A DNA stretch of 64,000 nucleotides, from NCBI GenBank assembly GCA_965246965.1, contig CBDFGD010000002.1, positions 1,612,890 to 1,676,889 on the forward strand, read 5' to 3'. The notes beneath the pieces are model-generated. The model did not search any database. It worked only from the letters and a program-made list of their open reading frames with translations, and was not told the origin of the DNA. The first letter of the stretch is position 1; each line of letters begins with the position of its first letter. This DNA comes from Vicinamibacteria bacterium. GTDB lineage: Bacteria; Acidobacteriota; Vicinamibacteria; Fen-336; CBDFGD01. Shown one piece after another: positions 2,077 through 57,203 of this stretch. The translations under genes and the position numbers were made by a program.

Positions 2077-2240
2077 CTCGTCACGAGAGAGGGAGGTCGC
2101 GCCAGGCTCGCGCGCGGCCCTGGTCAGCTCGGCCTGCAAGCGTGTCGCGCGAGGGAGGGGCGCGGCGGCCGTTTGGAGCTTTCGTGCGGCGCCGGCATGG
2201 CGAGAGTGTAGCATTGGGCCGTTTTTCGATAGGAGAACCC

Positions 2241-5200
2241 ATGCGCCCATCGATGCTCAGCGCCGTGCTGCTCGCTTGCCTCGCACTTCCGGCCGGCGCC
2301 CAGGAGGACCAGGAGAAGGAAGAGGAGAAGTGGGACGTCGACAAACCACCGGGCCCGCACTCCTCCGTCGAGATCGACACCGACGAGGGGACGTGGCTCA
2401 GCGTCGACGTCTCCCCGGACGGGAGCGAGATCGCCTTCGATCTGCTCGGCGACATCTACAGGATCCCGATCGAGGGAGGAGACGCCGAAGCCCTGACATC
2501 GGGGGTGGCGTGGGACATGCAACCCCGCTACAGCCGCGACGGAAAGAGCATCGCGTTCACGAGCGACCGCGGCGGCGGCGACAACATCTGGGTCATGGGG
2601 CGCGACGGCTCGGAGGCCGTTACCGAAGAGACGTTCCGGCTGCTCAACAGCCCGGTCTGGACGCCTGACGGCGAGTACCTGATCGCGCACAAGCACTTCA
2701 CGAGCGCGCGCTCGCTCGGCGCCGGCGAGATGTGGCTCTACCACCGATCCGGCGGCGCGGGAGTGCAGCTCACCGAGAAGCCGAACGACCAGAAAGACGC
2801 CGGGCCGCACCTTCCAGTACAACAAGGACTCGAACACGGAGATCTACGTCATCCAGCGGCTCGACCGCGAGACGGGCGAAACGGAGGAGTACATCAGCGG
2901 CCCGGGCGGTTCGATCCGCCCGACGCCTTCGCCCGATGGGAAGTCGCTGGCGTTCGTGCGCCGGATCCGCTTCCAGTCCGTGCTCTTCGTCCAAGACATC
3001 GAGTCGGGTCTGGAGACGCCGATCTATCACGCCCTCGATCGCGACATGCAAGAGACCTGGGCGATTCACGGCGTCTACCCATCGATGGCCTGGACACCGG
3101 ACAGCTCTTCCATCGTGTTCTGGGCGGGCGGGAAGATCCGCCGCGTCGACGTCTCCTCGCACGAGGCTGCGGTCATACCGTTCCGCGTCAAGGCGACGCG
3201 TCGGGTCGCCGAGGCCCTTCGCTATCCGGTCGACGTGGCCCCCGAGAAGTTCCCCGTGCGCATGCTGCGCTGGGTGCAGGTGTCGCCGAGCGGTGACCGC
3301 GTCGTCTATCAGGCGCTCGGACACCTGTACGTGCGCTCGCTGCCGGACGGAACGCCGGAACGGCTGACGTCACAATCTGACCACTTCGAGCACTACCCCT
3401 CGTGGTCGCGTGACGGCAGCCAGATCGTCTACACCACTTGGGACGATGACGAGCTGGGCAGCGTTCGCGTCGTCTCGGCGATCGGCGGCGAGGGTCGCGT
3501 CGTGACGGACCGGAAAGGTCACTATCTGGAGCCGGTCTTCTCGCCCGACGGCGCGACGATCGTCTACCGCCGTGCTGCGTCTCCAGGGTTCATCCGCTCG
3601 CCGCTCTACTCGTCCGACCCAGGCGTCTACCAGGTCGACGCCAGCAGTGGCGTATCGAAGCTCGTGACGAGAAGCGGAGTGCAACCGCACTTCGGGGCCG
3701 CGAGCGACCGTGTCTTCTTGCTGCGTCGCGAGGAAGAGGACAAGCGCTCGCTCGTGAGCATCGAGCTCGACGGCAGCGATGAGCGTTCGCACCTGGGCAG
3801 CGTCAAGGCGACCGAGTACCAGGTCTCGCCCGACGGCAATTGGGTGGCCTTCGGTCACGGCTTCAACGCGTTCATCTCGCCGTTTCCTGCGACGGGCAAG
3901 AGGATCGAGATCGGGCCCGATTCGGAGGCACTTCCGGTGAAGAAGGTCTCCGGCGAGAGCGGCGAGTATCTCCACTGGTCGGGAGACAGCTCGCGCCTGC
4001 ATTGGTCGCTGGGGCCCGAGCTCTACACACGTGAGCTGAAGGACGCGTTCGACTTCCTGCCGGGCGCGCCGGAGGAGCTGCCCGACCCGCCAAGGAGCGG
4101 CGCCCCGATCGGCTTCACGGCGGACACGGATGTGCCGAGCGGTCGCGTCGCCCTCGTCGGAGGGCGCCTCATTACCATGCGCGGCGACGAGGTGATCGAG
4201 GATGGCGTGGTCGTCATCGAGCGGAATCGGATCGTCGCCGTCGGGCCAAGAGCGAGTACCAGCGTTCCGAGCGACGCCGAGACGATCGATGTCGCCGGAC
4301 ACACCGTCATCCCCGGGCTCGTCGACGTTCACTGGCACGGCGTGATCGGCACCCAGGAGTTCATCCCGGAGAGCAACTGGGTGCTCTACGCTGGTCTGGC
4401 GTTCGGTGTCACGACGGCTCACAACCCGTCGTTCGACACGAGCACCATCTTCTCCGGCGCCGAGATGGCGATGGCGGGTCGAGTCGTCTCGCCGCGCATC
4501 TTCTCGACCGGGACGATTCTCTACGGCGCGACCACCGCGTTCACCGCCGAGATCGACAGCCTCGACGATGCACGTTTCCACGTCGGGCGGATGAAGGCCG
4601 TCGGCGCCATCACCGTCAAGAGCTACAACCAGCCGCGGCGCGACCAGCGCCAGCAGGTGATCGCGGCGGCCCGCGAGATGGAGATGATGGTGGTTCCGGA
4701 GGGCGGGTCTCTCTACGAGCACAACATGACCATGGTCGTGGACGGCCACACCGGAATCGAGCACGCGATTCCCGTCGGGGCCATCTACGAGGACACTCTT
4801 CAGCTCTGGGGCGGCAGCGACGTTGGCTACACCCCGACGATCGGAGTCGGCTACGGCGGCCTCAACGGCGAGTCCTACTGGTATGCGAAGACGAACGTGT
4901 GGGAGAACGAGCGGCTGATGGAGTTCGTGCCCCGGCGCGTCGTCGACTCGAGGGCGCGGCGTCGCACACTCGCCCCGGACAATGAGTGGAACCATATGAA
5001 CATCGTGCGCATCGCGAAGGAGCTGACCGACGTCGGTGTCAGCGTCCAGATCGGCGCCCACGGTCAGCGCGAAGGTCTCGCAGCGCACTGGGAACTCTGG
5101 AGCCTCGCCCAGGGAGGCATGACGCCGCTCGAGGTGATCCGCGCAGGGACGCTGAACGGAGCCGAGTACCTCGGACTCGATGGGGACCTTGGCTCCATCG

Positions 5201-5388
5201 AGGTGGGCAAGCTCGCCGATCTCGCGGTGATCGGCGGCAACCCTCTCGAGGACATTCGAGAGACCGAGCGGGTGCGCTACACCGTCCTGAATGGTCGCGT
5301 CTACGACGCCGCCAACATGAACGAGATCGGCAACCACCCGAAAGAGCGCGGCAGTTTCTTCTGGGAGGATATGGACGGCGAGCGTTAG
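2241..5388 (+). CDS. TolB-like beta-propeller + amidohydrolase family protein; apparent +1 frameshift near 2805-2812
   Basis: A signal peptide is followed by repeated WD40-like/TolB-like 'SPDG...' blades and a C-terminal metal-dependent amidohydrolase domain (GLVDVHWHG, HT..EHA). The reading frame switches from frame 0 to frame 1 at about 2808 (…KDAGPH / TFQYNKDSN…). Both parts read as one continuous protein of about 1049 aa. Confidence 0.7.
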
Positions 5389-5426: not shown

Positions 5427-5458
5427 CCAAGGGCAGCGGTTACCACCGCTGCCCTTGG
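5427..5458. terminator. Perfect 13-bp stem hairpin (CCAAGGGCAGCGG-TTACCA-CCGCTGCCCTTGG) 39 nt after the amidohydrolase stop
   Basis: Perfect inverted repeat read directly from the sequence. It is not followed by a U-tract, so it is a putative rho-dependent or structural terminator. Confidence 0.45.
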
Positions 5459-5478
5459 TATCACATTCACCAAAGAGG
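5456..5478 (+). repeat. 23-bp direct repeat copy 1 (TGGTATCACATTCACCAAAGAGG)
   Basis: Identical 23-mer to 5544-5566. Relatively AT-rich. It overlaps the 3' arm of the hairpin and lies in the intergenic region upstream of the SGNH hydrolase gene. Confidence 0.6.
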
Positions 5479-5543
5479 CCTGCCCTACGCGGCACCACTC
5501 GCTCAGGCTGAACAGATCGCATCGTTCGCCGGCACCGCGCTCC

Positions 5544-5566
5544 TGGTATCACATTCACCAAAGAGG
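5544..5566 (+). repeat. 23-bp direct repeat copy 2 (TGGTATCACATTCACCAAAGAGG)
   Basis: Perfect copy 88 bp downstream of copy 1 and about 55 bp upstream of the start at 5620. It is a candidate regulator-binding or promoter element. Confidence 0.6.
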
Positions 5567-5619
5567 GCCACTCGTCGCGACAGCTCTGGCTTGGGCCGGA
5601 CGAGCCGAGTGTGTGAGGC

Positions 5620-8183: not shown

Positions 8184-8948
8184 GTGATCCAGCTCGAGCA
8201 TCTGACGCGGCGCTTCGCGGGTGTCGCCGCGGTGGACGACGTGTCGCTCTCGGTGCGCGAAGGTGAGCTGCTCGTGCTGCTCGGCAGCTCGGGCTCCGGG
8301 AAGACCACTACGTTGAAGATGGTCAACCGGCTCATCGAACCGAGCTCGGGTCATATCGTCATCGACGGCCAGGACGTCCGCGACGTCGAGGTCCACGAGC
8401 TGCGACGTCACATCGGCTACGTGTTCCAGAAGGTCGGGCTCTTCCCGCACATGACCGTGTCCGAGAACATAGGCATCACGCCGCGACTGCTCGGGTGGCC
8501 TCGCGAGAGGATCGACGCCCGCGTTGCCGAGTTGCTCGAGTTGGTCGAGCTCGATCCTTCGCTGCTTGCGCGGCGTCCGGCCCAGCTCTCGGGCGGTCAG
8601 CAGCAACGCGTCGGCGTCGCCCGAGCGCTGGCGGCCGAGCCCTCGTTGATGCTGCTCGACGAGCCGTTCGGTGCGCTCGATCCGCTCACGCGCGATCGCC
8701 TCCAGCAATCCTTTCTCGAGATTCGACGCCGGTTGGGGATGACCGCGATCTTCGTGACGCACGACATGACCGAGGCCCTTCTGCTCGGCGATCTGATCGC
8801 CGTGATGCGGGCTGGGCGCCTCGTGCAGCTCGGCACGCCACGCGAGCTCGTGCAGCGCCCCGCCGATGACTACGTGTCGGAGCTCATGCAGACGCCGCGC
8901 AGGCAAGCCTCGGTGTTCGACGCACTCGCAAAAGGCGAGGGTCCTTGA
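8184..8948 (+). CDS. ABC transporter ATP-binding protein, glycine betaine/choline (Opu/ProV-like) type
   Basis: Walker A GSSGSGKTT, signature LSGGQQQRV and Walker B LLLDEP. GTG start at 8184 preceded by GAGGAGAGG. It is immediately followed by the permease/substrate-binding gene. Confidence 0.8.
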   Translation: MIQLEHLTRRFAGVAAVDDVSLSVREGELLVLLGSSGSGKTTTLKMVNRLIEPSSGHIVIDGQDVRDVEVHELRRHIGYVFQKVGLFPHMTVSENIGITPRLLGWPRERIDARVAELLELVELDPSLLARRPAQLSGGQQQRVGVARALAAEPSLMLLDEPFGALDPLTRDRLQQSFLEIRRRLGMTAIFVTHDMTEALLLGDLIAVMRAGRLVQLGTPRELVQRPADDYVSELMQTPRRQASVFDALAKGEGP

Positions 8949-10477
8949 GCGCGCAGCTGGCGCTGCTTCCCGAGCTACTCACGGCTCACCTGCAGCTGAC
9001 GCTGTCGGCGCTGCTGGTCGGCGTGCTGATCAGCGTGCCGGCCGGAATCGCGGTGACCCGAATCCGTTCGCTCGAACAGCCGGTACTCGGCGTCGCCAGC
9101 GTCATCCAGACGATTCCAGGCCTCGCGCTGCTCGCGCTGATGGTGCCGACGCTGGCCGCGCTGAACTTGCCGGCGATCGGGTTTCTGCCGGCGTTCCTCG
9201 GCCTCTGCCTGTACAGCCTGCTCCCCATCCTCCGCAACACGGTCACCGGCATCTCTCAGGTCGACCCCGCCATCATCGAGGCGGCGCGCGGAGTCGGGAT
9301 GACATCTCGGCAGCGACTCAGGCGAGTCGAGCTGCCGCTCGCGATGCCGGTCATCGTGGCAGGCTTGCGCACGTCGACGGTCTGGACCGTCGGCATGGCG
9401 ACGCTTGCGACACCGATTGGCGCCACGAGCCTGGGTAACTACATCTTCAGCGGGCTAGCGACCCGCAACTCGTACGCGGTCCTCGTGGGGTGCCTGGCAT
9501 CGGCCGCGCTGGCGATCCTGCTCGACGGCCTGGTGCGCCTGCTGGCAGAAGGCCTGGAACGATCGCGCAGGAGCTGGGTGGCGGGCTCGCTCGTCGTCGC
9601 CGGCGGGCTGTACGCCTACGCCGTCGTCGCGGCCGCGACGAGGCTCGCGGCTCCGAGCGGGCCATCTGTCGTCGTCGGCGCCAAGTCCTTCACCGAGCAG
9701 TACATCCTGCGGGCGGTTCTCGCCCTTCAGATCGAGCGGAGAACCGGACTGCCGACCCTGGCCCGTGAGTCGCTTGGATCGACGGTGGCCTTCGACGGCG
9801 TGCGCAGCGGCGACATCGACCTCTACGTCGACTACTCGGGGACGATCTGGGCGACCATCATGAAGCGCCCGACGCGTGGGGAGTCTCGACAGGCCGTGCT
9901 CGAGCAGGTTCGCGTTTTTCTGAAGACGGAGCACGAAATCACGATCGCCGCAGCCCTGGGCTTCGAGAACACGTACGCCCTGGCGATGCGCCGCGAACAG
10001 GCCGCTCGGCTCGACCTGGACAGCATCAGCGACCTGGCGCGTCACGCGCCAGGCCTGACCATGGGCGGCGACCTCGAGTTCTTTCAACGCGCGGAGTGGC
10101 GTTCCCTGCAGGAGGCCTACGGTCTCGAGTTCAGAGAGCGGCGCGACATGGATCCGTCCTTGATGTATCAGGCGGTCGCGGAGAGTGCCGTCGACGTGAT
10201 CAGCGCCTTCTCGACGGACGGCCGCATCGCGGCGTACGACCTCATCGTGCTGACGGACGATCGGGCCGCAATCCCACCGTACGATGCGATCGTCCTCGCC
10301 GGGGGGAGGCTCGCGCGGGAGCATCCCGAGGTGATGGCCGCCGTCGCCGCTCTCGATGGAACGATTAGCGCCGACAAGATGCGTGACCTGAATCACGCCG
10401 TGGACGAGCTCGGCCGACAGCCGGAGCAGGTCGCCGCGGATTTCTTGAAGGGGCTCGAGGCGGGGTCATCACCCTGA
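8945..10477 (+). CDS. Osmoprotectant ABC transporter, fused permease + periplasmic substrate-binding domain (OpuBC/OsmX-like)
   Basis: An N-terminal ABC permease domain (EAA-like loop region) is fused to a C-terminal OpuAC-type substrate-binding domain. The 4-nt overlap with the upstream ATPase gene suggests translational coupling. Confidence 0.75.
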   Translation: MSAQLALLPELLTAHLQLTLSALLVGVLISVPAGIAVTRIRSLEQPVLGVASVIQTIPGLALLALMVPTLAALNLPAIGFLPAFLGLCLYSLLPILRNTVTGISQVDPAIIEAARGVGMTSRQRLRRVELPLAMPVIVAGLRTSTVWTVGMATLATPIGATSLGNYIFSGLATRNSYAVLVGCLASAALAILLDGLVRLLAEGLERSRRSWVAGSLVVAGGLYAYAVVAAATRLAAPSGPSVVVGAKSFTEQYILRAVLALQIERRTGLPTLARESLGSTVAFDGVRSGDIDLYVDYSGTIWATIMKRPTRGESRQAVLEQVRVFLKTEHEITIAAALGFENTYALAMRREQAARLDLDSISDLARHAPGLTMGGDLEFFQRAEWRSLQEAYGLEFRERRDMDPSLMYQAVAESAVDVISAFSTDGRIAAYDLIVLTDDRAAIPPYDAIVLAGGRLAREHPEVMAAVAALDGTISADKMRDLNHAVDELGRQPEQVAADFLKGLEAGSSP

Positions 10478-10589
10478 GCCCCCGGGAACCGCGGACGATC
10501 AACGGATAGCCACGGAGACACAGAGACACGCAGGAGCTCGATCCTTCGCCATCCCAATCGAGGGCAGTTTCAGGGCGAACCCAGTAGTG

Positions 10590-10884
10590 CTGCGCTCGCC
10601 TCGGCCAGCGAGGTGAGATCTCTCCTCTGGTATCGAGTGAAGAGGAGCAGACGGATTCTTCGCTCCAGGCGGAGACGAGCGGTCTCTCAGAATGGCGAGG
10701 GGACGAACTTTCGATCGGGCCAACGGCGATTGACGGATCGTCTCCTCGTCATCCTGAGGCCGGGTCAGTCCCGCACGAGCCGAAGGATCCGCCGGCGAGG
10801 TGATGTGGCCGCCTGCGCTCCTGGGGAACGAGGAGCGGACGGATTCTTCGCTCCAAGCCGAGACGAGCGGTCGCTCAGAGTGAC
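10590..10884. repeat. Intergenic ~190-bp repeat family, locus A (about two tandem copies; inverse orientation relative to locus B)
   Basis: The reverse complement of 10646-10695 and of 10835-10884 matches the 5' ends of the locus B units (GTCATTCTGAGCGACCG…CGAAGAATCCGTCTGC). The internal segment …CTCCTCGTCATCCTGAGGCCGGGTCAG… is also shared. Confidence 0.7.
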
Positions 10885-12445
10885 GAAGCCTTGGCCGTTC
10901 TCTGTGCCTCCGTGACTCTGTGGCTTTCGTTGCGGGCAAAAAGCCACGTCACGTACGTCACGCATGCCAGGGCCGCGACGCTCGTCGCCGTGAACAGCTC
11001 GTCGTACCAACCCGTAAACGCGGGGATGACGCACGAGATGGCCGCGAACGCGAGGAGCGCGACGCCGACACGACGTTCCCGCGACCAGAGCAGGCCGAGG
11101 CAGAGGAAGCCCGAGAAGTAGTAGCAGGTCAGCTCCGACCCGACCGGGATCAGCCCCACGGCCAGGCAGGCCGTCACCCAGTCCTCGCGCCCCCGGATGG
11201 CCCGGGCAAAAAGCACGACGTAGAGGCTGACGGCCAGCCAGTAGAGCACCCGGCGTCTCGCGAAGGTGGAGCGACGGGCTTCCTTCCAGGGTGTGTAGGG
11301 ATCTTGAAGCGACTCGTCCTTGACGATGCGGGCGCGAGTCGCGTGATCGTAGGCGACGACCGTCGGTAGGCCCATGTCGTTCGTCAGCGACGTATCGAGA
11401 TGCAGCCGCGTGTTCCTGGCAAAATCGGTCCAGACGCCCGCGTCCCCGGCCACCCACATCGACGCGGGCACGAGCACGGCCAGCGCGACCAGAGCTCCCA
11501 TCGCGAAGCGTCGGTGTTCGGAGCTGACCATCACCCGCCGTTCGTCCCACATGCGCAGACCTGCCGCCATCCCGATCGCACCCAGAAACACGGCGGGGAA
11601 GACGCGAAGCGTCGCGCTCCACGCGAGCAGCGCCCCGGCCCACCCGTGGCAGCCGCGACGCAGGAAGCAGATCCCGATCACCGCGGCGCTCAGCCAGTCC
11701 TGTCGAAGAAACGACCCGCCGGTCCACCAGAAGCGGGCGGGGTAGTTGGAACCCCAGAAGATCGCGGCGACGCTGGCCGCACGCCACCCGAAGGCCCACC
11801 AGACCGCGATCCACATCACGACGAGCGACAGGGAGTCGATCAGCGCCAGGGCGGTGACGGAGAGCGTGGAAACGGGCGTCAGGTTGGCGAGCGGCGATCC
11901 CGCTACGAGCCAGGCGGGTGTGGCGTTGAAGCCGTGATCCTGCTGCGCTTCCCGCCAGCGCAAGGCCGACATCTGTCCCCTGAACCAGCCGATGTCGGCC
12001 TTGAAGGCCGCCCAGCGCTCGGTCGTGAAACGCGCCCCTCGCAACGGCCGGGGTCGTGGAGCACCGTCTCCGCTGATTCGATCCGGTTTGTCGCCAGGTT
12101 TCGGATCGAGCGCCCGCGCACGTCGTCGGCTCCCAACGCCTCGGCATCGGCCACCGTCGAGCAACGGTACAGGCCCTCGTAGCCGAGCTCGCGGAAGTAC
12201 TTGGCTCCGACGACATAGTGGTACAGCTCCCACCGATGCAGGTAGGTCGAGAAGTGGAACTTGCCGAGATTCCACCAGCAGAGCAGCGCGAAAAAGCCCA
12301 GGACGAGAAGCGCCTTGTCCCACGGGCGGCGGTGGCTCTCGCCCACGCGTGGCTCCCGAAGGACGCCCCATACCGCCAGCGCGACCCCCAGCACCGCCAC
12401 CCCGCCCTTGATCTGATCGAGATGGAGTTGGGTGAGCGGCGCCAT
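10875..12445 (-). CDS. Polytopic integral membrane protein (GT-C-like / DUF-type), apparent frameshift near 12030-12060
   Basis: The N-terminal 180 aa (12445 to about 12040) and the C-terminal roughly 400 aa (about 12060 to 10875) lie in different frames. Both parts are strongly hydrophobic multi-transmembrane sequence. Family assignment is tentative. Confidence 0.45.
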
Positions 12446-18639: not shown

Positions 18640-18909
18640 GACGCCCTCCAAACAACTCTCTGTGAGGCGGATCCTGGGTCAGGCAACTTGAGTCTAGTAT
18701 TGAGTGTCGCAGCGGAGTTAGGTACTGTCAACTCAGGAATCGCTTTAGATCTAGCTGCTCCGGGTAAAGCGGTGCACGCTAAATCTCGTTCGTGAAAGGA
18801 CTTTCCACCGTGACGGGCGTCACAGGTATCGGTCCCGAACTCGTCGCGGGCGGGGCTGTCGCGGCCCGGGGCATCCGCCAGACTCGCTCGGAATGACGAA
18901 CGGCAACCG

Positions 18910-20289
18910 TCAAGCCACCACGTAGGTCGGCACAGCGCCGCCTCCCGCGCTGATGTTGATGACGGCTTCGCGCGACAAGCGGGTGATCGCACCGACCTCG
19001 CCTCCGCTCACGTAGAACGGATTCGTATTCAGCTTCAGCGATTCGAACCGGAGGTCTCCATCGATGACCATCGGGAAGCGCTCCTCAGGGATCTCGACCC
19101 GCTCCTGAACGACGGTCGGACGGCGCAGCGCGGTCTCGACGGCCGCGAGCCACTCTGCCTCTGTGACCTGATCTCCCACCACGACAGCCTCGCCGCCGTA
19201 CCCTTCGGTGGGCTTCAGCACGAAATCCCGCCGATGCGCCAGGACGTGCGGGACCAGATCCACCTCCCGGGCATGCCACAGGGTCTTGCGATCCTCGAGG
19301 CGGCGCGTCCAGGGCAGGCAGCGCAGAACGAGATCGCGCTCTTCCTCGCTCAATAGGTGCGCCCAGCTCTCGTCCGTCAGGATAGCGAAGAACCCCTTGT
19401 CCTCGGAGAGGTTGCAACGGAATGTGTTGATGAAGAGCGCCAGGCCCCTCTCATACGCCGTGAGGAAGGCCATGAGCTCGTCCGCCCGCGGGGCGATCTC
19501 CCAGGAGACTCCCCTTCGGAAGACGACGTCGACCGGCATCTCACCGCAGTACAGCCGCTCGCGCCGAATCTCGACGTCACGCATGTCGGCCACCACGCAG
19601 CGTGCGCCGCGCGCCTTGAAAACCTTCGACAGGATTTCCTGATCCGGGCGCGCCTTCACGTCGGTCCAGTCCAGGACCGCGACGTTTGGCACGCCACGGC
19701 CCCCGCGCCGACGCCAGAGCGAGGCGAAGGCGTCGACGAGCACCCCCGCGGAGCGCTGGTAGTGGACGCTCTTCTCCTTCGCGAAGGTCCGGAACAGGGG
19801 CAACCGCGCGAACACGTTGGCCATGCTGTCGCCGTAGCCGAAGCCCGCCGGCGCATCCGAGTTGATCTCGATGAAGCGCGGGCCGTCTGCGGTCGGGAAT
19901 GCGTCGACGCGCGAGTAGACGACATCCGGCTCTCCGGGATCGACACGCAACAGGCGCGCCCGCTCTTCGGGGATCCCCAGGTGAGCGCATAACCTGTCGA
20001 CGTCGCCATCGAAGACGCGCCGGGCAACGCGAGCGGCGATCTCGACCACGCGCCGCGCGCTCTGCCGGAGCCGACGCCAGTCCTCGACGTCAATGAAATG
20101 GGGGCGCAGGCAGGTAGGCATTGCGCTTCCGCCGAACGTGATGCCGGCGCTCCGAAACGCGTCTTGGAGCCACTCGTGTTGCGCGACCGCCGCGCCCGGG
20201 TCCGCAGCCACCCGCTCGTTGTAGGCGGCCACGGCAGCCTGGGCGGGAGTCACCGGCGCCGGGTGCGGCGCTTCCCGGGGATCGGCCAC
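18910..20289 (-). CDS. ATP-grasp-fold protein (circularly permuted type-2 / COG2308-like), function unknown
   Basis: 459-aa ORF. The assignment rests on overall resemblance recalled from memory, so it is low confidence. The putative start overlaps the pyrC 3' end by 40 bp. Confidence 0.35.
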   Translation of the reverse strand: MADPREAPHPAPVTPAQAAVAAYNERVAADPGAAVAQHEWLQDAFRSAGITFGGSAMPTCLRPHFIDVEDWRRLRQSARRVVEIAARVARRVFDGDVDRLCAHLGIPEERARLLRVDPGEPDVVYSRVDAFPTADGPRFIEINSDAPAGFGYGDSMANVFARLPLFRTFAKEKSVHYQRSAGVLVDAFASLWRRRGGRGVPNVAVLDWTDVKARPDQEILSKVFKARGARCVVADMRDVEIRRERLYCGEMPVDVVFRRGVSWEIAPRADELMAFLTAYERGLALFINTFRCNLSEDKGFFAILTDESWAHLLSEEERDLVLRCLPWTRRLEDRKTLWHAREVDLVPHVLAHRRDFVLKPTEGYGGEAVVVGDQVTEAEWLAAVETALRRPTVVQERVEIPEERFPMVIDGDLRFESLKLNTNPFYVSGGEVGAITRLSREAVINISAGGGAVPTYVVA

Positions 20290-23159: not shown

Positions 23160-24743
23160 TCACGTGGCGAGCGCGGATCCTTTTGCCGCGGCGCTGGGCG
23201 GCATCTCGAGCCGCGTCTTCAAAACAACGAGCGTGGCGTCGTCCCGCGGCTCGGCGCGCCCGCGAAAGGCGCGCACGCCGTCCTGGACGTGGGCCAGCAT
23301 GCCGTCGACGGAACGCTCGCGCGACGCCACGAGTAGCTCGGCGAGCCGTTCCTCCCCCAGCTCCTCGCCCGTCGGATCCTCGGCCTCGGAGAGGCCGTCG
23401 GTGAAGGCGCACAGTGCGCCCCCGACGCCGAGCTCGATGCGTCCGACCTCGTAGCCGCCACCCGGCAGCAGCGCCAGTGGCCTACCGGTGGACGGGAGGC
23501 GCCGCCTCTCGCCGTTCGTCGCCACGAGCACGGGCTCGGCGTGACCCGCGTTCAGGTAACGCAGCTCTCGGCCGGCCGGATCGACGACTCCCGCGAACAA
23601 CGTGAGGTAGTGGCCCGTGTTGGTGCTGGCCGCGATCTCGTGGTCCAGCTCGTCGGCGACACGGGCGAGATCTCGCCTCGAGATCAGGCGCGCGCGAAGT
23701 GTCGCCTGGAGATTGGCCATCAAAAGGGCCGCCGGAACGCCCTTCCCCGAGACGTCCCCTACGAGTACGACGAGCGCGCCGTCCGGCAGCCGGAAGTAGT
23801 TGTAGAAGTCGCCTCCGACGGCGCGAGCCGCGACGGACCAGCCGCTCACCTCCGCCGTGAGCGTGCGCAGCGACGTGCGTGGAAGGAACTCGTTCTGGAT
23901 CCGCTGGCACAGCTCGAGCTCCCTGCGCAAGCTCTCGCGCCGCACCAGCTCCAGCTGGTGCAACGCCAGGTCCTCGGCCATCCGGTTGAAGGACTCGGCC
24001 AGCTCGCCGAGCTCGTCCTTGGAGCGGACCGGGACGCGCACGGTGAGGTCTCCCTTGGCCAGGCGCTCCGCGCCTTCGGTGACGCGAGCGAGATTTCGGG
24101 TCAGGCGGCGCGACAATGGACGAATCGTCAGCAGGGCAGCGATCGCCATGGCGAGCCCGTAGCCCAGGTTGCGCAGCGCAGCCTCCCGGATGTCCCGCAG
24201 CTCCGCGCCGACCGGTCGCGCGATCCCGAGCGTGAGGCCGGAGGCTGGATCGCGGCGCATCACTACGATCCAGTCGCCGAGCGCCTGGACCGAGCCGCCG
24301 GGGTCGGTCGGGGCCCGAAGGCCGGTCTCGGTGAAGGTGTTCAGCACGGGCTGATCGGTCGCGTGGCGCGCGATCAGCTGCCCGCCGGCGTCGAGTCCGA
24401 AAGGAATCTCGCCCTGCTCCACCTCGGCGCGAGCCAACACGCCCTGCAAGGTGTCGAGCGCCTGGTCCCGCTCGGCCTGGGCCAGCGCGTCGCGACGAGC
24501 CTTCTCGTAGTCTTCGCTCCGGTCCGGCTTGGGTTGCTGCAGAAGCCGGGCCATGCGCCGGCTGAGCTCCAGCGTGAAGCGCTCCATTTCGGTACCCATG
24601 CTCTCGGCGAGGGTTTCCGCCTCGGCCTCGACGGCCCGCCGGTAGCTGCCCTCCGAGCTGAAGTAGCCCTGCAGCGTCACGACCGTCAGCGGGACGATCG
24701 CCACGATCGCGAACGTCAACATCAGCTGGGTTCGCAGCCTCAC
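23160..24743 (-). CDS. HAMP-domain SpoIIE/RsbU-like PP2C serine phosphatase (membrane anchored)
   Basis: N-terminal transmembrane helix, a HAMP linker (…FNRMAEDL…) and a PP2C/SpoIIE domain (GDVSGKG, DG..E). Confidence 0.75.
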
Positions 24744-26614
24744 TTGACGGGCTCCTGGTCCTCGAGAGGCGGAACGTCGACGGGCGGCGGCGGGGGTTCA
24801 GTCACGGCGAGGCTCTCGTAGCTCGGGATGTAGGTTACGGGATGAGAGCGCGCGAAGCTCTCATCGAGCATGCCCGTGAGGACGACTCCCTCCATGTCCC
24901 GGGCCACCGGCAATCCCATCAGGTAGAGGACCGTCGGCGTCACGTCGAGCACCGAGGCGCCCAGCATCTCCGTGCCCGGCCGGATCCCCTCTCCGACTGC
25001 GATCAGAAACCCGGGGGGTGCACCGGCGTGGGATCCGCTCATCGACGAGCCGCCGAGCACACCGGTGATGGCGCGACGCCACAATGGGACGGGGCGCATC
25101 CCGTACCCGGACACGACCAGCAGCACCTCGTCCGGCTCCAACGATTCGTGAAGCTCCCCCACCCACTCGCCGAGCTGGGCCGTGTAGCGCTCGATCACAT
25201 CGCCGTAACGTCGCACCTCCATGGGAGTGACGTCGCCGAAGCGCTCGGGGTTCGCGAACCTGTGGAAGGTGTGCCCCACGATGTCCGCTCCGAAGAAATA
25301 GGTCGCAAAGAAAGCCGGCTGGTACGCCGCCCTCAGCACCTCCCCGGCCCTCTTGTAGGTGAGGTCCCGGGCCAGGGCGCGCTCCAACAGCTCGCGCTCC
25401 AGCTCCACGTCCACGGCATCGCCCGAGACCGAGACGTCTACGAAGCGACCGAGCGAGCTCTCGACGGCCGCGAACGACACGGCCCGCGCCCCGATCTCGT
25501 CGACGAGATCGGTCGGAAACAAGGTCTCGAGCCGGCGCCCCGGAACCTCGCCCAGCAAGTGAAAGTAGTTGGACAGCATGAAACCCGATACGTGCTCGGG
25601 TGGGTGAGTTCCCCAGAAGCGAATCACGCCCGCTTGAATCCCGAACGCGTTGAGCGCATGCCAGAGCGCCCGACGCCGCCGCGACGCCGCCGTCACCGGA
25701 GATCTCGTCACCAGGCGCAGGCCCTCGAGCGCGCTCACGAGCACGCCCTTCGGCAGCAGCTGCATCGGAGGGCCGTCCGCCGCGAGCCGGTAGTCCACGA
25801 AGCTCTTGACGCCGTGCGCGCTGGGCGAGCGCCCCGTGAAGATCGACGCCCAGATGGGCGGCCCCTCGGTCGGTTGAAGCGTGCCGAGGGACGCGAAAGC
25901 GCCTTGCCGCAGCAGCGAAGCGAAGACCGGCAGGCGCCCCGCGCGGGCCGCTTCCCGCAGCGCCTCGGCATCGACTCCGTCGACCCCCACCAGGATGACG
26001 CGTTTGACGGGGGCGACGGGCTCAGTCGCGAGCCTGGCGGGTTCCGCCCCCGTCGCGGGTTTCGGACGCAAAGCGAGCGGCACCGCGAGCGCAGCGCCGA
26101 AGGCCAGCACGATCAGCGCGGAATGCCCACCCCGTCGTCTGTAGGGGAACGCCAGGAGGGAAACACCCACCGCCAGCAGCAAGGCAACGATGCAGCTGAG
26201 GCCGATCGCTGACAACTCCAGGGCGTGAAGCGATGCCGGGGAGACGGAGTCCTCGTACGCGTAGCGATTGAACCAGTAGAGACCCGCCGTGGCCGAAACG
26301 GAGAGGAACAAAAGGGACGCAAACCACGGTAGCTCCACGATCAGGGCTTGCGACGCCCGTGGCCACCACTCGACGGCGCTGATCAAGCGCAGCACGAACA
26401 GGAGCGCGAGGGTGCCGACCACCCAGTACGGAAGGAACAGCGACCCAAACAGCGCCCCCGCGCTCGCGCCCAGCTCGAAGGAAGGATTGAGGATCAGCGC
26501 GAGAACCGTGATCCCCGAGGCGAGCTGGACGGCCGCCAGAGCGGCACTCGCCAGGATCCTGGTCCACACGGTGGCAATACTAGCCTTCCACCGTGGAACA
26601 GGAACGACAGCCAC
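24740..26614 (-). CDS. Membrane-anchored alkaline-phosphatase-superfamily protein (type I phosphodiesterase / sulfatase-like)
   Basis: Several N-terminal transmembrane helices, then VILVGVDGVD (metal-binding Asp block of the AlkP core) and GHTFH. Its start/stop overlaps the downstream phosphatase gene. Confidence 0.55.
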   Translation of the reverse strand: MAVVPVPRWKASIATVWTRILASAALAAVQLASGITVLALILNPSFELGASAGALFGSLFLPYWVVGTLALLFVLRLISAVEWWPRASQALIVELPWFASLLFLSVSATAGLYWFNRYAYEDSVSPASLHALELSAIGLSCIVALLLAVGVSLLAFPYRRRGGHSALIVLAFGAALAVPLALRPKPATGAEPARLATEPVAPVKRVILVGVDGVDAEALREAARAGRLPVFASLLRQGAFASLGTLQPTEGPPIWASIFTGRSPSAHGVKSFVDYRLAADGPPMQLLPKGVLVSALEGLRLVTRSPVTAASRRRRALWHALNAFGIQAGVIRFWGTHPPEHVSGFMLSNYFHLLGEVPGRRLETLFPTDLVDEIGARAVSFAAVESSLGRFVDVSVSGDAVDVELERELLERALARDLTYKRAGEVLRAAYQPAFFATYFFGADIVGHTFHRFANPERFGDVTPMEVRRYGDVIERYTAQLGEWVGELHESLEPDEVLLVVSGYGMRPVPLWRRAITGVLGGSSMSGSHAGAPPGFLIAVGEGIRPGTEMLGASVLDVTPTVLYLMGLPVARDMEGVVLTGMLDESFARSHPVTYIPSYESLAVTEPPPPPVDVPPLEDQEPVK

Positions 26615-26650
26615 GGAGGCGCAGAGACTCGGAGAACGGCCAAGGCGGCG

Positions 26651-27060
26651 TCATTGTGAGATTCCGACTCCGCAGCGTCATTCTGAGTGAGCGCTAGTCC
26701 CCGCTTGGAGGGAAGAATCCGTCTGCTCCTCTTCACTCGATCGTCAGCCGTTTCCACAAAGAGGGGCGGGCGGATCCTTCGGCCCGACCACGACTGACCC
26801 GGACTCAGGATGACGAGGAGTCGATCCGTCAATCGCCATCGCCGCCATCGAAAGCTTCGTCCCCTCGTCATTCTGAGCGACCGATCGTCTCCGCCTGGAG
26901 CGAAGAATCCGTCTGCCCTTCCTCACTTAATCGTCAGCCGTTTCCACAGAGAGGAGCTGGCGGATCCCTCGGCCCGGCCACGACTGAGCCGGCCTCAGGA
27001 TGACGAGGAGTCGATACCGTCGATCGCCGTCGACTTCATCGAAGTTGTGGCGCGTCTGCT
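26651..27060. repeat. Intergenic ~190-bp repeat family, locus B (two tandem units 26677-26866 and 26867-~27060, plus a partial upstream copy)
   Basis: The two units share a GTCATTCTGAGYGAVCG… start, an …AAGAATCCGTCTGC… segment, …CGTCAGCCGTTTCCACA… and …CTCAGGATGACGAGGAGTCGAT…. Its reverse complement is at locus A. Confidence 0.75.
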
Positions 27061-27196
27061 CCCCTTCCCCTCCCCGTGCATTCTCCACTGCTCCTCGCTC
27101 AACCCGAGTTCGTGACGACAGGAGACGCGCCGAGAGGCCTGTTATCATCAGCCTCGATCTCGTGACGCAAACGGCTCAGCGCAGCGCGCTCCGCAT

Positions 27197-28030
27197 TTGG
27201 CAGTAGATCTCGACGTCGCGCTCGTCGGCAAAGAACGCATCCTTGGCGACTACTTCCTACTGACCTTCGAACATGCCGAGGTCGCGGCGACGGCGCGGCC
27301 GGGCCAATTCGTCATGATCAAGGCGGGCTTGTCGCGAGAGCCCCCGCTGCGGCGACCGTTCTCGATCATGACGGTCGAGGCCAGGGCGTCCACGTTCACG
27401 CTGTTCATCAAGGCTATCGGCCCGGGCACCGCGGCCTTGTGCTCGCTCCAGGAAGGACAGTCCGCGCGCTGCCTGGGGCCGCTCGGCACACCGTTCAGCC
27501 TGCCGCCTCCGGGCGACCTGCTCGTTCTCGTCGCGGGCGGGTACGGCGTCGCGCCGTTCGTGATGCTGCTCGAGGAGCGCTCGGCCAATACGCGGCTCTT
27601 CTACGGCGGCCGCACGGCGAGCGAGCTTCCCCTTCTCGATCGTCTCGCCCCACACGGCTGGAACGTGGTGCCGGCGACCGAGGACGGCAGCGCGGGTGAA
27701 CACGGCCGGGTGACCCAGCCGCTCGAAAAGCACCTCGCCGATTCGCAGGCGCCCGCCACGCTGCTGGCTTGCGGCCCCGAGGCGATGCTCGAGGCGGTCG
27801 GCGAGATCGCAGAGCGAAGGGGACTTCACGCGCAGGTGAGCCTCGATCCCTGGATGGGCTGCGGGGTCGGCACCTGCCTCGGCTGCGTCGTCCCAATCCA
27901 GGAGGAGAGCGAAGATCGTCCGCGACTCCGCTGCGCTTGCACTCAGGGGCCGGTCTTCGACGCGCGCAACGTCGTGTGGCCCGGCGCAACCCGATCCGCT
28001 GCCGGAAGGCGAGCGCTGGCGAGCTCGTGA
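27197..28030 (+). CDS. pyrK: Dihydroorotate dehydrogenase electron-transfer subunit
   Basis: FAD/NAD-binding ferredoxin-reductase-like fold with a C-terminal 4-Cys cluster (CGVGTCLGC…C). Confidence 0.8.
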   Translation: MAVDLDVALVGKERILGDYFLLTFEHAEVAATARPGQFVMIKAGLSREPPLRRPFSIMTVEARASTFTLFIKAIGPGTAALCSLQEGQSARCLGPLGTPFSLPPPGDLLVLVAGGYGVAPFVMLLEERSANTRLFYGGRTASELPLLDRLAPHGWNVVPATEDGSAGEHGRVTQPLEKHLADSQAPATLLACGPEAMLEAVGEIAERRGLHAQVSLDPWMGCGVGTCLGCVVPIQEESEDRPRLRCACTQGPVFDARNVVWPGATRSAAGRRALASS

Positions 28031-38533: not shown

Positions 38534-38534
38534 C
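38291..38534 (+). repeat. 244-bp direct repeat copy 1 = native 3' end (last 77 codons plus stop) of the giant gene
   Basis: Aligns base-for-base with 40791-41034 at about 93% identity. Confidence 0.85.
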
Positions 38535-38558
38535 CGCCGCAGCAGTGCCGACCGGGGA

Positions 38559-40790: not shown

Positions 40791-41034
40791 GAGGTGATTC
40801 AGACGTTGCCGGGTGGCGTCGGCGACCTACTCGACGACCTCGCCCAGCAGGTCTCGGACTCGGTGATGCCGGCCCTGCGCGGCATCTCGCGTCGCATCGA
40901 GGGCTCGGACGACAAGGTCGACCGCCGCGCCCGCACCGAAATCTCCAAGGCGCTCAAGCAGCTCGACCAGCTTCGCGATCTCGCCGGCGCGCTGCGGCGT
41001 CTGGACACGCGAAGGATCGGCGAGGAAAGCTAGC
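40791..41034 (+). pseudogene. Orphan copy of the giant-gene 3' end (repeat copy 2), embedded in ORF 40713-41033
   Basis: About 18 nt differences from copy 1 but only 1 amino-acid difference (G to R) over 77 codons. Homology starts abruptly at GAGGTGATTCAGAC. Confidence 0.7.
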
Positions 41035-41394
41035 GGGCGAACCTCGTAGCGACTGCGTCGAGTCGAGTTGACGCCGCTACGCCGCCCGAGAATCGGGGGG
41101 CCGCTCATCTAGTTGCCGTTTCTCGAGCGGACGGTGTGGGTCGTCGGTGACGACGCCGTCATAGCGGCGGCGAGTGGGTCGTTCTACCGCGACGGCGAGC
41201 TACTGGCGCCGGAGGCGTACGGTGGACGGCTGGCCGAAGCCGAACAGCTGATGAGACTGTTCACCAGGCGTTAGCGGCAGGGGTCTCGTCGGGCGCGGCT
41301 GGCCTGCCAGCCGGCCGCGTATCGTCCTCGCGATCCCAGGAAGACATCGCTCTATCCGACTCCTCGAGGTTTTCTAAGCTTGTATCGCCGATCA

Positions 41395-45714: not shown

Positions 45715-45750
45715 GCGCTCCACCCCTCGTTCAGACTTGGACCTTCGCAC

Positions 45751-47273
45751 GCTAGGAGTCTGCGCGGCAGTAGTTCAGCCCGGGTGTGTCATCGTGCCTT
45801 GTGACCCGAGAGATCATCTTGCCTGGGCTAAACGGCAGTAGTGGGCTCGCGGACGAGTGCTCGCGAGGGAGGACGGGCGGATCCAAGGCCGGGTGGTGGT
45901 CATACCCAGACCATCTTCCGATTGAGTCTCCTGAGGTTGAGCGCCAAGCAAACGAGATTCCACTCGGCGCTGGTTTTCTCAAGCCCTCGAAGGCTGAAGG
46001 ATTGGAAACCAAGCACAGCCTTGATCCATCCGAATGGCGGTTCGCCGAGTTTGCGCCGCTTGTACCACTTGCGACCACGTTTCGTCTTGAGCTTCGCCTT
46101 CATGCGGAGCGTCGCTTCGAGCTTCGAATTCGACGTTGGTGGAGAGTCTTTCTTTTCTCTCCCCAGAGCCACGAAACCGTCGATTCCGGTACGTTCCAAG
46201 TGCAGTAGGTTCTTTTCGGAACGGTAGCCGGCATCGGCCAGGGCACGCTTGGGCTTCTCACCGGTGTTGGCTTGAGCCGTTTTCAGCATCGGCTCGAGCT
46301 GACCGACATCCGCAGCGTTGTTGGTCAACCCGGTCGCAACGATCAGCTGCGATTTCTCGTCGACGGCGGCTTGGGCATTGAAGCACTGCTGGTAGCCACT
46401 CGAATCCTTCATGATGCGGCTTTCGGGATCGGTGAAGTTGTCCTGCTTCTTGTCCGGAGGTACGCCAAATCTCCTTTTGAACTTTGGCCCTCGCTTCGAT
46501 TCCTTGTCATCCCCTGGCCGACGTCCGGCCTGCTGATCTTCTTCCTTCTGACGGGCCTCCAGACGTGCCTTCGCTGCTTGGATTTTCTTGAGCCGTGAAT
46601 CTCGGCGCGCCAGCTCTTCTGGCAGTTCGTCGCCACGAAAATCAGGACCAAACTCGACGTCTTCCGCAGCATCTTCTTGTTTCGCAAGAGCGGTGATAGC
46701 CCGAATCTCTCGACGGAGCTGTTTCTCCGTTTTCTTCATACGCTCGTAGCTCATCGCCTTGTGCTTGCTGGCATTCGCCTTGACCTTCGTTCCATCCAGA
46801 ATCAACGTCCCAAGCTTGACCAAACCCACTTCTTGAGCCAGACGCACGACTTGGACGAATACAGATCGAAACTGGGACAAATGGTCACAACGGAAATCAC
46901 TGATCGTCCGGTGTGCCGGGAAATTGCCTCCGCTCAAATAACGGTATGCGACATCCTCTTCCAGCTTCTTCGCGATCCCACGAGACGAAAACGTCCCTGT
47001 CGCATAGCCGTAGATCAGAACCTTCAGCATCATTCGAGGATCGAATCGTCGGTTCCGACGTCCATCGCCCTCGTAGCGCTCGTAGAAAGCACGCACATCC
47101 ATCGCCTCCACCGTATCCGAGATGAAAAACGAAAGATGACCCTCCGGAAGCCAGTCTCGTGGATTCGACGGAAACAAACTCGATTGGTCAGGACTGTACG
47201 GACGGAAACTCGTTCCCATAACTTCAAAAACGCTCATTCACCCGATTTCGTTCCTGCCGCGCAGACTCCTAGC
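45751..47273 (-). mobile_element. IS1182-family insertion sequence, copy 1 (1523 bp)
   Basis: Perfect 17-bp terminal inverted repeats GCTAGGAGTCTGCGCGG / CCGCGCAGACTCCTAGC. Single intact transposase ORF. About 99% identical to copy 2, which lies in inverted orientation. Confidence 0.85.
45900..47237 (-). CDS. IS1182-family (DDE_Tnp_1 / DUF772) transposase, intact
   Basis: 445 aa. Conserved N-terminal block (…LIYGYATGTFSSRGIA…RYLSGG…) and DDE region. Confidence 0.85.
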   Translation of the reverse strand: MSVFEVMGTSFRPYSPDQSSLFPSNPRDWLPEGHLSFFISDTVEAMDVRAFYERYEGDGRRNRRFDPRMMLKVLIYGYATGTFSSRGIAKKLEEDVAYRYLSGGNFPAHRTISDFRCDHLSQFRSVFVQVVRLAQEVGLVKLGTLILDGTKVKANASKHKAMSYERMKKTEKQLRREIRAITALAKQEDAAEDVEFGPDFRGDELPEELARRDSRLKKIQAAKARLEARQKEEDQQAGRRPGDDKESKRGPKFKRRFGVPPDKKQDNFTDPESRIMKDSSGYQQCFNAQAAVDEKSQLIVATGLTNNAADVGQLEPMLKTAQANTGEKPKRALADAGYRSEKNLLHLERTGIDGFVALGREKKDSPPTSNSKLEATLRMKAKLKTKRGRKWYKRRKLGEPPFGWIKAVLGFQSFSLRGLEKTSAEWNLVCLALNLRRLNRKMVWV

Positions 47274-47274
47274 G

Positions 47275-57124: not shown

Positions 57125-57203
57125 CTCTTGTGCTTGGACCGGTTTCGGGGACCCCTGGTTGAAGCGCCAGCCCGAAGAATCTGCGGGACCCGCTTCAACC
57201 CCG

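Follow-up and report, generated by a model that had tools for sequence, protein, structure and literature searches.

The closest described systems to the repeats reported here are found among the repetitive extragenic palindromic (REP) sequences, in particular the CGTC-tagged superfamily of Di Nocera, De Gregorio and Rocco (2013). Its members carry the tag CGTC, often TGTC and also CCTC, ahead of an 8-9-bp stem whose first residues are nearly always complementary A-T; the loop measures 4-5 nt and the tail 3 nt (PMC3733652). Head-to-head dimers 20-100 bp apart predominate and heterodimers are common, with occasional insertion into gene ends and no associated transposase (PMC3733652). The superfamily includes dRS3 of Neisseria, which forms the inverted repeats of the Neisseria intergenic mosaic elements (NIMEs), as well as RPE-4 and RPE-6 of Rickettsia (PMC3733652). 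Here, we analyzed ~190-bp repeats at two loci, A and B, in a 64-kb stretch of a Vicinamibacteria genome (contig CBDFGD010000002.1), hereafter the window. Both loci are probably mosaics in which REP-like palindromic elements form arrays, much like the bacterial interspersed mosaic elements (BIMEs) of Escherichia coli and the NIMEs.

The comparison with the CGTC/TGTC superfamily, which comprises four families, was made at the level of its described features. By these features, the two groups share an unpaired tag, an A-T/T-A stem foot, and a short unpaired tail. In both, head-to-head dimers tens of bp apart predominate and heterodimers are common, and the elements are mostly extragenic, with occasional read-through at the C-terminal ends of genes and no dedicated transposase known. 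However, the published tail consensus is CCA, whereas the tail here is C-(T/C)-N, and CCG in the window. Acidobacteriota are not among the hosts listed for the superfamily, and phage genomes are unmentioned there (PMC3733652). Overall, the window elements most probably belong to the CGTC/TGTC-tagged REP kind, as a BIME/NIME-like mosaic that departs from it in one structural respect.

In E. coli BIME-2 and the REPINs, as in the window, palindromes alternate in orientation, conserved linkers join tandem dimers, and a dimer can fold as two small hairpins or one long one. However, the REPs of E. coli and Pseudomonas have a GTAG tag and are linked to genes for REP-associated tyrosine transposases (RAYT, Y1 HUH), whereas the tag here is CGTC. 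The arrays here also differ from BIME-2 in comprising about two repeats and in having one of the two inter-arm segments not conserved. In NIMEs, inverted 20-bp dRS3 repeats bracket each RS segment of 50-150 bp, so that variable segments of tens of bp again lie between inverted CGTC-type hairpins, arrayed between genes. The dRS3 sequence with its flanks, which we take to be GTCATTCCCGCG-N3-CGCGGGAATC, presumably shares the GTCATTC...GAATC foot, whereas hairpin interior, host phylum, and array size differ. dRS3 is a known target of IS110-like recombinases and of filamentous prophage integration; the only hint of such targeting here comes from two IS110-family copies lying 15-60 nt from hairpins in a relative. 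Enterobacterial repetitive intergenic consensus sequences (ERIC, also called intergenic repeat units, IRU; ~127 bp) resemble the present units as intergenic imperfect palindromes of 100-150 nt that are present or absent at orthologous sites and often lie within the mRNAs of their neighbors. However, ERIC is a single long palindrome of unrelated sequence, with no tagged sub-hairpins and no tandem mosaic. In Acidobacteria, Quentin et al. described class 3 Y1 transposases flanked by structures with a CnGA foot, unlike the tag seen here (PMC6006769).

Two arrays of head-to-head arms

The preliminary description of this DNA had reported ~190-bp tandem repeats at two loci in opposite orientation, and this observation is confirmed because tandem-repeat, BLASTN, and 11-mer counts agree. 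At locus B (+ strand), two head-to-tail 190-bp units, B1 and B2, occupy 26676-26865 and 26866-27055. Tandem Repeats Finder recovered 26676-27043 with a period of 190, 1.9 copies, 85% matches, and a score of 561, and a repeat search aligned 26676-26825 with 26866-27015 at 87% identity (150 nt); the two units are 86% identical. Locus A (- strand), from 10885 down to ~10537, contains the same sequence in reverse complement. About two units had been assigned to each locus; locus B has two, and locus A has one intact unit (A1) and one decayed unit (A2). Unit A1 (10884-10696, -) matches B1 with 79% identity over 192 nt (BLASTN, E 2.6e-37). The first 66 nt of A2 are 89-90% identical to B1 and B2, and the rest is decayed yet alignable, with its degenerated end TTGGGATGGCGAAGGATCGAG aligning with TCAGGATGACGAGGAGTCGAT. 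GTCATYCTGAG, allowing at most one mismatch, occurs 12 times in the window versus 2.05 expected, and 8 of the 12 occurrences lie inside the two loci. As a tandem satellite, the repeat has a period of 190 but reaches only 1.9 copies at 85% at locus B, and its second unit is decayed at locus A. The homologous block is larger than described, beginning at a leader (10925-10888, -, and 26609-26646, +) and reaching ~10537 at locus A.

The units had also been set apart from palindromic REP elements as having no evident inverted repeats. Neither statement stands. Each unit has a pair of inverted arms and folds as one long, imperfect hairpin; in every unit, two copies of a tagged palindromic hairpin are joined head to head, as in REP/BIME elements. 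The paired arms have the form CGTC-ATYCT-GAG…CGAAG-RAT-CCG. Every arm in the window fits GTC-ATYCT-GAG...CGAAG-RAT-C, that is, a 5-bp foot around 31-33 nt, and the foot is ATTCT/AGAAT in left arms and ATCCT/AGGAT in right arms. The foot ATYCT/AGRAT is intact in five of seven arms, the exceptions being the left arm of A1 (ACTCT) and the right arm of B2 (GGGAT). The tag CGTC directly precedes 7 of 8 arm starts, A2 having CGCC, and the tail of the window arms is CCG. All three complete units are head-to-head, with spacers of 44-45 nt and mixed ATTCT/ATCCT feet. Each unit starts with CGTCATTCTGAG, and CTCAGGATGACG follows ~116 nt later; these ends pair over 12-15 bp and form the outer stem of the long hairpin, 13-14 bp in the fold, and GAAGAATCCGTC opposes GGCGGATCCTTC further inside. 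The 190-bp period arises because a conserved linker of ~50 nt joins successive dimers. The window arms are expanded-loop forms of a 25-nt hairpin described below, in which an insert of ~20 nt splits GAGCG|AGCGA.

Aligning the two loci, it becomes clear that A (-) and B (+) share a collinear block of ~300 bp made up of leader, unit, linker, and second left arm. Their leaders (CACRGAG 8-mers plus GAACGGCCAAGGC) are 79% identical, the first left arms 81.5%, the first right arms 86%, the linkers 88%, and the second left arms 90%, whereas the first spacers, at 45%, are unrelated; beyond the second left arm, similarity decays. A uniformly decaying duplicate does not fit, because identity is uneven, at 45% in the spacer versus 81-90% in arms and linker. 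Bacterial interspersed mosaic elements show just this alternation of conserved arms and linker with a replaceable spacer.

At locus A, read on the minus strand, the leader (10888-10925) comprises CACRGAG 8-mers (AGCCACAGAGTCACGGAGGCACAGAG) followed by AACGGCCAAGGC and encodes the last ~15 residues of a membrane-protein open reading frame (ORF). The A1 left arm (10838-10885), CGTC-ACTCT-GAGCGA...GGAGCGA-AGAAT-CCGTC, has an expanded loop and one T-to-C change in the foot, and supplies the TGA (10877-10875) at which that ORF stops. The A1 spacer (10794-10837) is followed by the inverted right arm (10747-10793; CGTC-ATCCT-GAGGCCGGG...CCGA-AGGAT-CCGCC on the plus strand) and by the A1-A2 linker, AGGAGACGATCCGTCAATCGCC...CGAAAGTTCGTCCCCT (10698-10746). 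The A2 left arm, CGCC-ATTCT-GAGAGACCG...GGAGCGA-AGAAT-CCGTC, spans 10650-10697, and the decayed remainder of A2 (10537-10649) has a spacer resembling that of A1. An inverted CACRGAG module, AGCCACGGAGACACAGAGACACGCAG (10508-10533, +), closes the locus at a position conserved in the orthologous regions L129 and L130. (Loci of relatives are labeled L004, L005, L129, L130, and L131; L126-L128 are metagenome contigs, and L006, L036, L074, L076, L088, L096, and L124 are IMG/VR contigs.)

All features of locus B lie on the plus strand. Its leader of CACRGAG 8-mers and GAACGGCCAAGGC is followed by an extra 27-nt partial arm found at this locus only, CGTCATTGTGAG... (CGTCATTGTGAGATTCCGACTCCGCAG; 26649-26675). 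Unit B1 then consists of the left arm CGTC-ATTCT-GAGTGAGCG...GGAGGGA-AGAAT-CCGTC (26676-26723), a spacer (26724-26768), the inverted right arm (26769-26815; GTC-ATCCT-GAGTCCGGG...GCCGA-AGGAT-C on the minus strand), and the conserved B1-B2 linker (26816-26865). The spacer contains CGTCAGCCGTTTCCACA, which had been listed as a conserved segment of the family; this holds between B1 and B2 only, as the locus A spacer is unrelated. B2 has the left arm CGTC-ATTCT-GAGCGACCG...GGAGCGA-AGAAT-CCGTC (26866-26913), a spacer (26914-26958), and the right arm with GGGAT for AGGAT as its one foot mismatch (26959-27005). A trailing copy of the linker follows (27006-27055) and diverges past ~27043. Elsewhere in the window, GTCATTCCGAGCGAG (18883-18897, -), 13 nt past the stop of ORF 18910-20289, is a possible degenerate singleton of the hairpin family. 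The equivalent site in L004, downstream of an ATP-grasp-like gene, has a CACGGAG leader and then CGTCATCC, with an IS110-family fragment further on.

By Pfam-type assignment, the flanking genes are as previously described. Locus A is flanked by an OpuAC/BPD_transp_1 fusion (8945-10477, +) and by the membrane protein, which has no Pfam match (10875-12371, -), and locus B by a Phosphodiest-family gene (24740-26614, -) and PyrK (27197-28030, +). The gene contexts are opposite, with locus A between convergent gene ends and locus B between divergent gene starts, and both loci are extragenic save for the read-through of one ORF end.

The widespread 25-nt hairpin

The canonical hairpin to which the arms relate is (T/C)GTC-ATYCT-GAGCG-N-AGCGA-AGR-AT-C. 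Scanning with GTCATYCTGAGCG-N(0-30)-AGCGAAGRATC, we detected it in at least 120 IMG/VR contigs. Among the IMG/VR matches listed, Y and R of the foot covary in 148 of 149 copies (T/A 92, C/G 56, T/G 1, C/A 0). The mispaired versions number one T-G and no C-A in all of IMG/VR, and a strand test by wobble asymmetry rests on these two counts. With a free-stem pattern, GTCATNNNGAGCGNAGCGANNNATC, which leaves three stem positions per side unconstrained, 160 distinct copies were recovered; Watson-Crick pairs make up 467 of their 480 free pairs, and at least nine stem variants are fully complementary; the first free position is TA in 96, CG in 50, GC in 8, and AT in 4. The loop base N varies freely. 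The tag T/C-GTC is present in 150 of 155 copies (upstream base T in 132, C in 18), and the tail is C-(T/C)-N, read as CTC in 69, CTG in 23, and CCC in 19 of the 155. Many members of the family have a loop insertion of 7-45 nt.

Dimers of this hairpin are predominantly head-to-head, as are the units of the window. In 1.09 Mb of hairpin-bearing IMG/VR loci, which contain 363 hairpins, neighbor pairs no more than 150 nt apart are head-to-head in 59 cases, head-to-tail in 24, and tail-to-tail in 18, and single arms are common in the wider family. Among head-to-head pairs with ATTCT/ATCCT stems, 26 are mixed versus 18 of the same type, and because mixed-stem pairs are common, the two arms vary independently. 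It is the small hairpin that is maintained and not the long one, in line with RNAalifold finding few compensatory pairs in the long hairpin.

The hairpin also occurs well beyond the IMG/VR contigs. An Acidobacteriota metagenome-assembled genome (MAG) carries GTCATTCTGAGCGGAGCGAAGAATCCGTC, a compact dimer of 70 nt (GTCATCCTGAGCGGAGCGAAGAATC...GGATCCTTCTCTGCGTTCAGGATGAC) occurs in a Chloroflexi MAG, and Holophagales MAGs bear the hairpin as well. The 25-mer is found on plasmids of Planktothrix, Calothrix, Oscillatoria, Hymenobacter, and Granulicella, mostly in unannotated DNA. The cultured-phage database yielded one true match, in the record of an uncultured fecal phage, the others being partial chance matches. 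A metagenome scan with a three-block pattern recovered three contigs, L126-L128, that have the head-to-head architecture of the window with other spacers and interiors. The architecture thus recurs in metagenome contigs, including in tandem copies: L127 has three opposed-arm pairs, two of them dimers 159 nt apart and the third ~380-540 nt on, past a GIY-YIG ORF. In a relative, L005:2006-2049 is a related expanded-loop arm, 84% identical over 44 nt (related stretch L005:2006-2105). The repeats had been described as novel, which is appropriate for the 190-bp expanded form, since it is lineage-restricted and this arm is the only partial homologue found. It is not appropriate for the building block, which is very widespread and of the CGTC/TGTC-tagged kind. 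The literature search found no relevant paper that prints the hairpin sequence strings, and the peptide strings expected from the 25-mer are not in the supplementary tables of PMC3733652.

The genes next to the hairpins in IMG/VR belong to phage structural families, including the SU10 adaptor (eight ORFs), capsid, tail tube, portal, and terminase. In the phage contigs L124, L076, L006, L036, L096, and L088, the hairpin reaches 1.1-1.7 copies per kb, and in L006 most of the gene junctions examined bear a hairpin or a dimer. The GIY-YIG ORF of L127 (994-1375, -; 98 aa, YhbQ/URI-like) lies between tandem hairpin dimers; as a general partner of the family this nuclease was rejected, as phmmer found no other in 1.24 Mb of hairpin-bearing loci. 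On L074, a contig with three GTCAT hairpins, an Acido-Lenti-1 RNA (RF01687, 45.8 bits versus a gathering score of 37) lies at 5333-5379 (+); its sequence is unrelated to the hairpin.

Origin, spread, and possible roles of the arrays

The preliminary description had proposed insertion polymorphism as a check, and comparison with relatives bears it out: units are absent at orthologous sites in L005 and L129, L004 has a degenerate dimer, and L130/L131 carry a different insert. PyrK homologues with 81% and 78% identity identify the orthologous pyr loci. The Phosphodiest-pyrK intergenic region is ~600 bp in the window versus 174 bp, with no GTCAT element, in L005, and in L004 it measures 268 bp and contains one degenerate 85-nt dimer, GTCATCCCGGAG...CTCAGGGTGAC. 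At locus A, the intergenic region is ~400 bp in the window versus 107 bp without units in L129, where the membrane-protein homologue is 83% identical. The orthologous region in L130/L131, from a relative with a 6.5-Mb genome, is 362 bp long and harbors a small insert of another kind, bounded by terminal inverted repeats of its own. Because L130 carries this different insert, the locus A region is a hot spot for unrelated small elements. In all relatives, inverted CACRGAG modules are kept at the edges of these intergenic regions, with GTCAT units inside that frame. In total, there are two loci in the 64 kb of the window, two elements each in L004 and L005, and none in L129. The arrays are therefore present here and absent from the orthologous intergenic regions of the relatives; gain is favored, although loss is not distinguishable from it. 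At the 3' end of the membrane-protein gene, ORF 10875-12371 reads through the CACRGAG leader into the TGA of the A1 left arm, so that its last ~15 residues (…ESHRVTEAQRTAKASSL) have no counterpart in the 83%-identical orthologue.

The repeats had been thought to lack coding capacity and not to be a regulatory site. The former is borne out for this intergenic repeat family, and the latter agrees with their behavior, shown by the insertion polymorphism, as a dispersed and probably mobile element. We propose that the hairpins would be dispersed in trans by an enzyme recognizing the tag and hairpin in single-stranded DNA, by analogy with the RAYT/IS200-type HUH transposases acting on GTAG-tagged REPs. 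To our knowledge, no mobilizing enzyme is known for CGTC-type repeats. The array would then have grown locally by slippage or unequal recombination, as the 86% identity of B1 and B2 suggests, and a block of leader, unit, linker, and unit may have been copied, inverted, to a second site 16 kb away. The arrays are most likely selfish or neutral, and any consequences for the host are probably incidental, namely imperfect stem-loops at the 3' end of the membrane-protein mRNA and far upstream of pyrK, together with the C-terminal tail and stop codon that the membrane-protein ORF gains from the element.

Several observations weigh against a mosaic of mobile REP-like elements. The stem of the known CGTC/TGTC-tagged REPs is continuous over 8-9 bp with a loop of 4-5 nt, whereas the canonical copy here has 5 bp, a G-A/A-G internal loop, 2 bp, and a 3-nt loop, and the window arms have a 5-bp foot around ~32 nt with ~20 extra nt inside. 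In the predicted fold of the 25-mer, the 5-bp foot leads to a 2x2 G-A/A-G internal loop and then to two G-C pairs capped by a GNA triloop; this fold is weak by nearest-neighbor parameters (-1.9 to -7 kcal/mol, z ~0). d(GCGNAGC) mini-hairpins are unusually stable, and nearest-neighbor models may miss that stability. Single window arms are likewise poor hairpins (DNA fold z of -0.8 to +1.2). Among 150 ORFs adjoining hairpins in IMG/VR, no transposase was present among the 25 most frequent Pfam families, beyond which come 18 families with a single member each. Scanning the genome collection with a 20-mer from the unit, a pattern that is too specific, gave only three matches, all short-form hairpins; the 190-bp form may thus exist only at these two places plus one partial relative. 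As the comparators are only ~80% identical in protein, loss and gain of units are not separable. Finally, the interior GAGCG/AGCGA does not vary between phyla; such constancy would be uncommon in REPs that are purely selfish and could indicate a specific role in binding.

This last point leads to another explanation, in which the tagged hairpin is a recognition module common to environmental bacteria of at least four phyla and to phages, read by one conserved protein or ribonucleoprotein. We consider such a module unlikely, although it is compatible with the invariant interior, tag, and tail alongside a covarying stem, with the thermodynamic weakness of the hairpin, and with its density of up to ~1.7 copies per kb on longer contigs and its position beside phage structural genes in the viral contigs. 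Candidate readers are the enzyme that would mobilize CGTC-type repeats and a DNA- or RNA-acting factor of host or phage, and the window arrays would be expanded-loop derivatives of the site.

A further option, already raised in the preliminary description, is that the units are MITE-like (miniature inverted-repeat transposable elements). As a classical MITE, the ~140-bp core (CGTCATTCTGAG...CTCAGGATGACG) would be a deletion derivative of an insertion sequence (IS) with a DDE transposase, moved by cut and paste via its terminal inverted repeats, and a parent IS with CGTCATYCTGAG ends would be implied. The core has the size of a typical MITE, its ends form 12-15-bp terminal inverted repeats, and it folds as one long hairpin; the presence or absence of the element at orthologous sites would also suit a MITE, as would the other small inserts with terminal inverted repeats in the same intergenic region of a relative. 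However, no direct repeat representing a target-site duplication flanks the unit borders of B1, B2, or A1, and the 27-bp ends of the only IS type in the window (DDE_Tnp_1/DUF772) bear no relation to the units, ruling this IS out as the parent. Moreover, the common single arms and the head-to-tail and tail-to-tail pairs of the wider family are unfit for a two-ended element, and each arm keeps its own complementarity while arm-to-arm pairing tolerates mismatches. The spacer inside the supposed element is not conserved between the loci, whereas the linker outside it is. A classical MITE is therefore unlikely.

It is less likely still that the arrays are a functional structured RNA or cis-acting transcript element, such as a 3'-end stabilizer or insulator for the membrane-protein gene, an element of the pyrK 5' leader, or a small RNA. 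Folded as RNA, the tag-first strand of locus B does better than its shuffles (z of -2.6 for the plus strand versus -1.05 for the minus strand). Folded as DNA, the unit cores reach z scores of -1.9 (B1), -3.2 (B2), and -1.25 (A1), of which only -3.2 lies outside the range that shuffled sequences attain easily. An adjacent gene runs in the same orientation as the array at both loci, and the hairpin is reminiscent of a protein-binding RNA motif in combining an invariant interior with a covarying stem. In the lower-GC loci of the family, hairpins are about twice as common 3' of genes as 5' (61 versus 28), but their orientation to the nearest gene is random (33 same-strand and 28 antisense on the 3' side; 13 and 15 on the 5' side). 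In the window, Rfam 15 gave no match at the gathering score; across both loci, 12 related loci, and the canonical dimer, the repeats matched only generic miRNA-precursor/long-hairpin models below threshold. Sigma-70-like promoters and intrinsic-terminator-like sites are absent from both loci. For the three complete units of the window, RNAalifold found 45 pairs in the long hairpin, only three of them with a compensatory change, and an unfavorable covariation term. The opposite gene contexts, at a convergent 3' end and in a divergent 5' region, and the absence of units at orthologous loci also argue against such a role. The structured-RNA option of the preliminary description is thus unsupported, as Rfam yields no family at threshold, covariation is confined to the small hairpin, and orientation is unbiased.

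Finally, a one-off segmental duplication of ~300 bp between nearby intergenic regions followed by local tandem duplication, with no family and no mobility, would account for the collinear leader, unit, linker, and second left arm, for the restriction to two loci in 64 kb, and for the near absence of the specific 20-mer and three-block pattern from genome and metagenome collections, but it is very improbable given the uneven identity noted above, the hundreds of copies of the hairpin family elsewhere, and the related expanded arm and leader-plus-CGTCAT arrangement at other loci in relatives.

Taken as mosaic arrays of REP-like elements, the two loci have consequences for annotation, as a set of spurious ORFs can be removed, the element-derived C-terminal tail and stop are explained, and two intergenic regions are marked as hot spots of small-element turnover. 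The CGTC/TGTC-tagged hairpin kind is extended to an Acidobacteriota lineage and to uncultivated phages, and a clean covariation data set is supplied for the hairpin. The window arms illustrate that the hairpin interior tolerates inserts of ~20 nt while foot and tag are kept. Hairpin-dense genomes and phage contigs are good places to seek the enzyme that spreads CGTC-type repeats.

Accompanying repeats and insertion sequences

A second repeat family consists of 8-nt periodic CACRGAG units with a consensus of approximately GATNAACGG-NA-GCCACRGAG-RCACRGAG. Its modules lie in the window at 10508-10533 (+), 10888-10925 (-), and 26609-26646 (+), and in the relatives at L129:4446-4478 and 4520-4548, L130:4664-4692 and 4803-4830, L005:9876-9895, 9935-9960, and 4768-4812, and L004:4704-4733 and 1905-1942. 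They lie where intergenic regions border on genes, mostly as an inverted pair that frames the region, and their orthologous positions are conserved in all relatives examined. The core AGCCACRGAGRCACRGAG was detected in 36 IMG/VR contigs, where it frequently forms perfect hairpins of ~70 nt, and the family has no Rfam match in the window. A general linkage between CACRGAG modules and GTCAT hairpins was considered and found to be weak (3 of 60 clusters versus 1.5% expected).

Next to pyrK, the proximal sequence GTTATCATC.CCTCGATCTCGTGACGCAAA is kept in the window, L004, and L005. The conserved upstream sequence, GTTATCATC-N-CCTCGATCTCGTGACGCAAAYGG, lies at 27125-27175 in the window, L004:9955-10000, and L005:9965-10010, with the repeat array upstream of it, and may serve as a promoter or as a site of pyrimidine regulation. 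The different insert in the orthologous region of locus A, L130:4497-4665, is a MITE-like sequence of ~170 bp with the terminal inverted repeats AGTACTCGGATCCGCAATTACGG / CCGTATTTACGGATCAGAGTACT.

In the pyrC-pyrB intergenic region of L005, two tandem copies of an IS110-family element (DEDD_Tnp_IS110/Transposase_20) lie at 2110-3310 and 3505-4715. Each copy starts 15-60 nt downstream of a GTCAT-type hairpin, after a GGCTCTC-N-TG-N-TCTC-like sequence. This arrangement is reminiscent of the IS110-like targeting of REP and dRS3 sequences and may, by that analogy, offer a lead for the hairpins as landing sites rather than for their own mobility.

The window itself has two identical (99-100%) 1.5-kb IS copies in inverted orientation, at 45744-47280 and ~57197-58734, which encode a 445-aa DDE_Tnp_1/DUF772 transposase and end in the 27-bp terminal inverted repeats mentioned above. 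The copies bracket ~9.9 kb; G+C is 0.58-0.65 over the IS copies and past ~56 kb, and 0.65-0.73 in most of the segment. It is possible that the inverted pair is a composite transposon. In addition, a 249-nt direct repeat (92%) at 38291-38539 and 40791-41039, spaced by exactly 2500 nt, probably reflects tandem paralogous genes. A small intergenic direct repeat of 63 nt (75%) occurs at 5451-5513 and 5539-5601, 88 nt apart, with GGTATCACATTCACCAAAGAGG in common.

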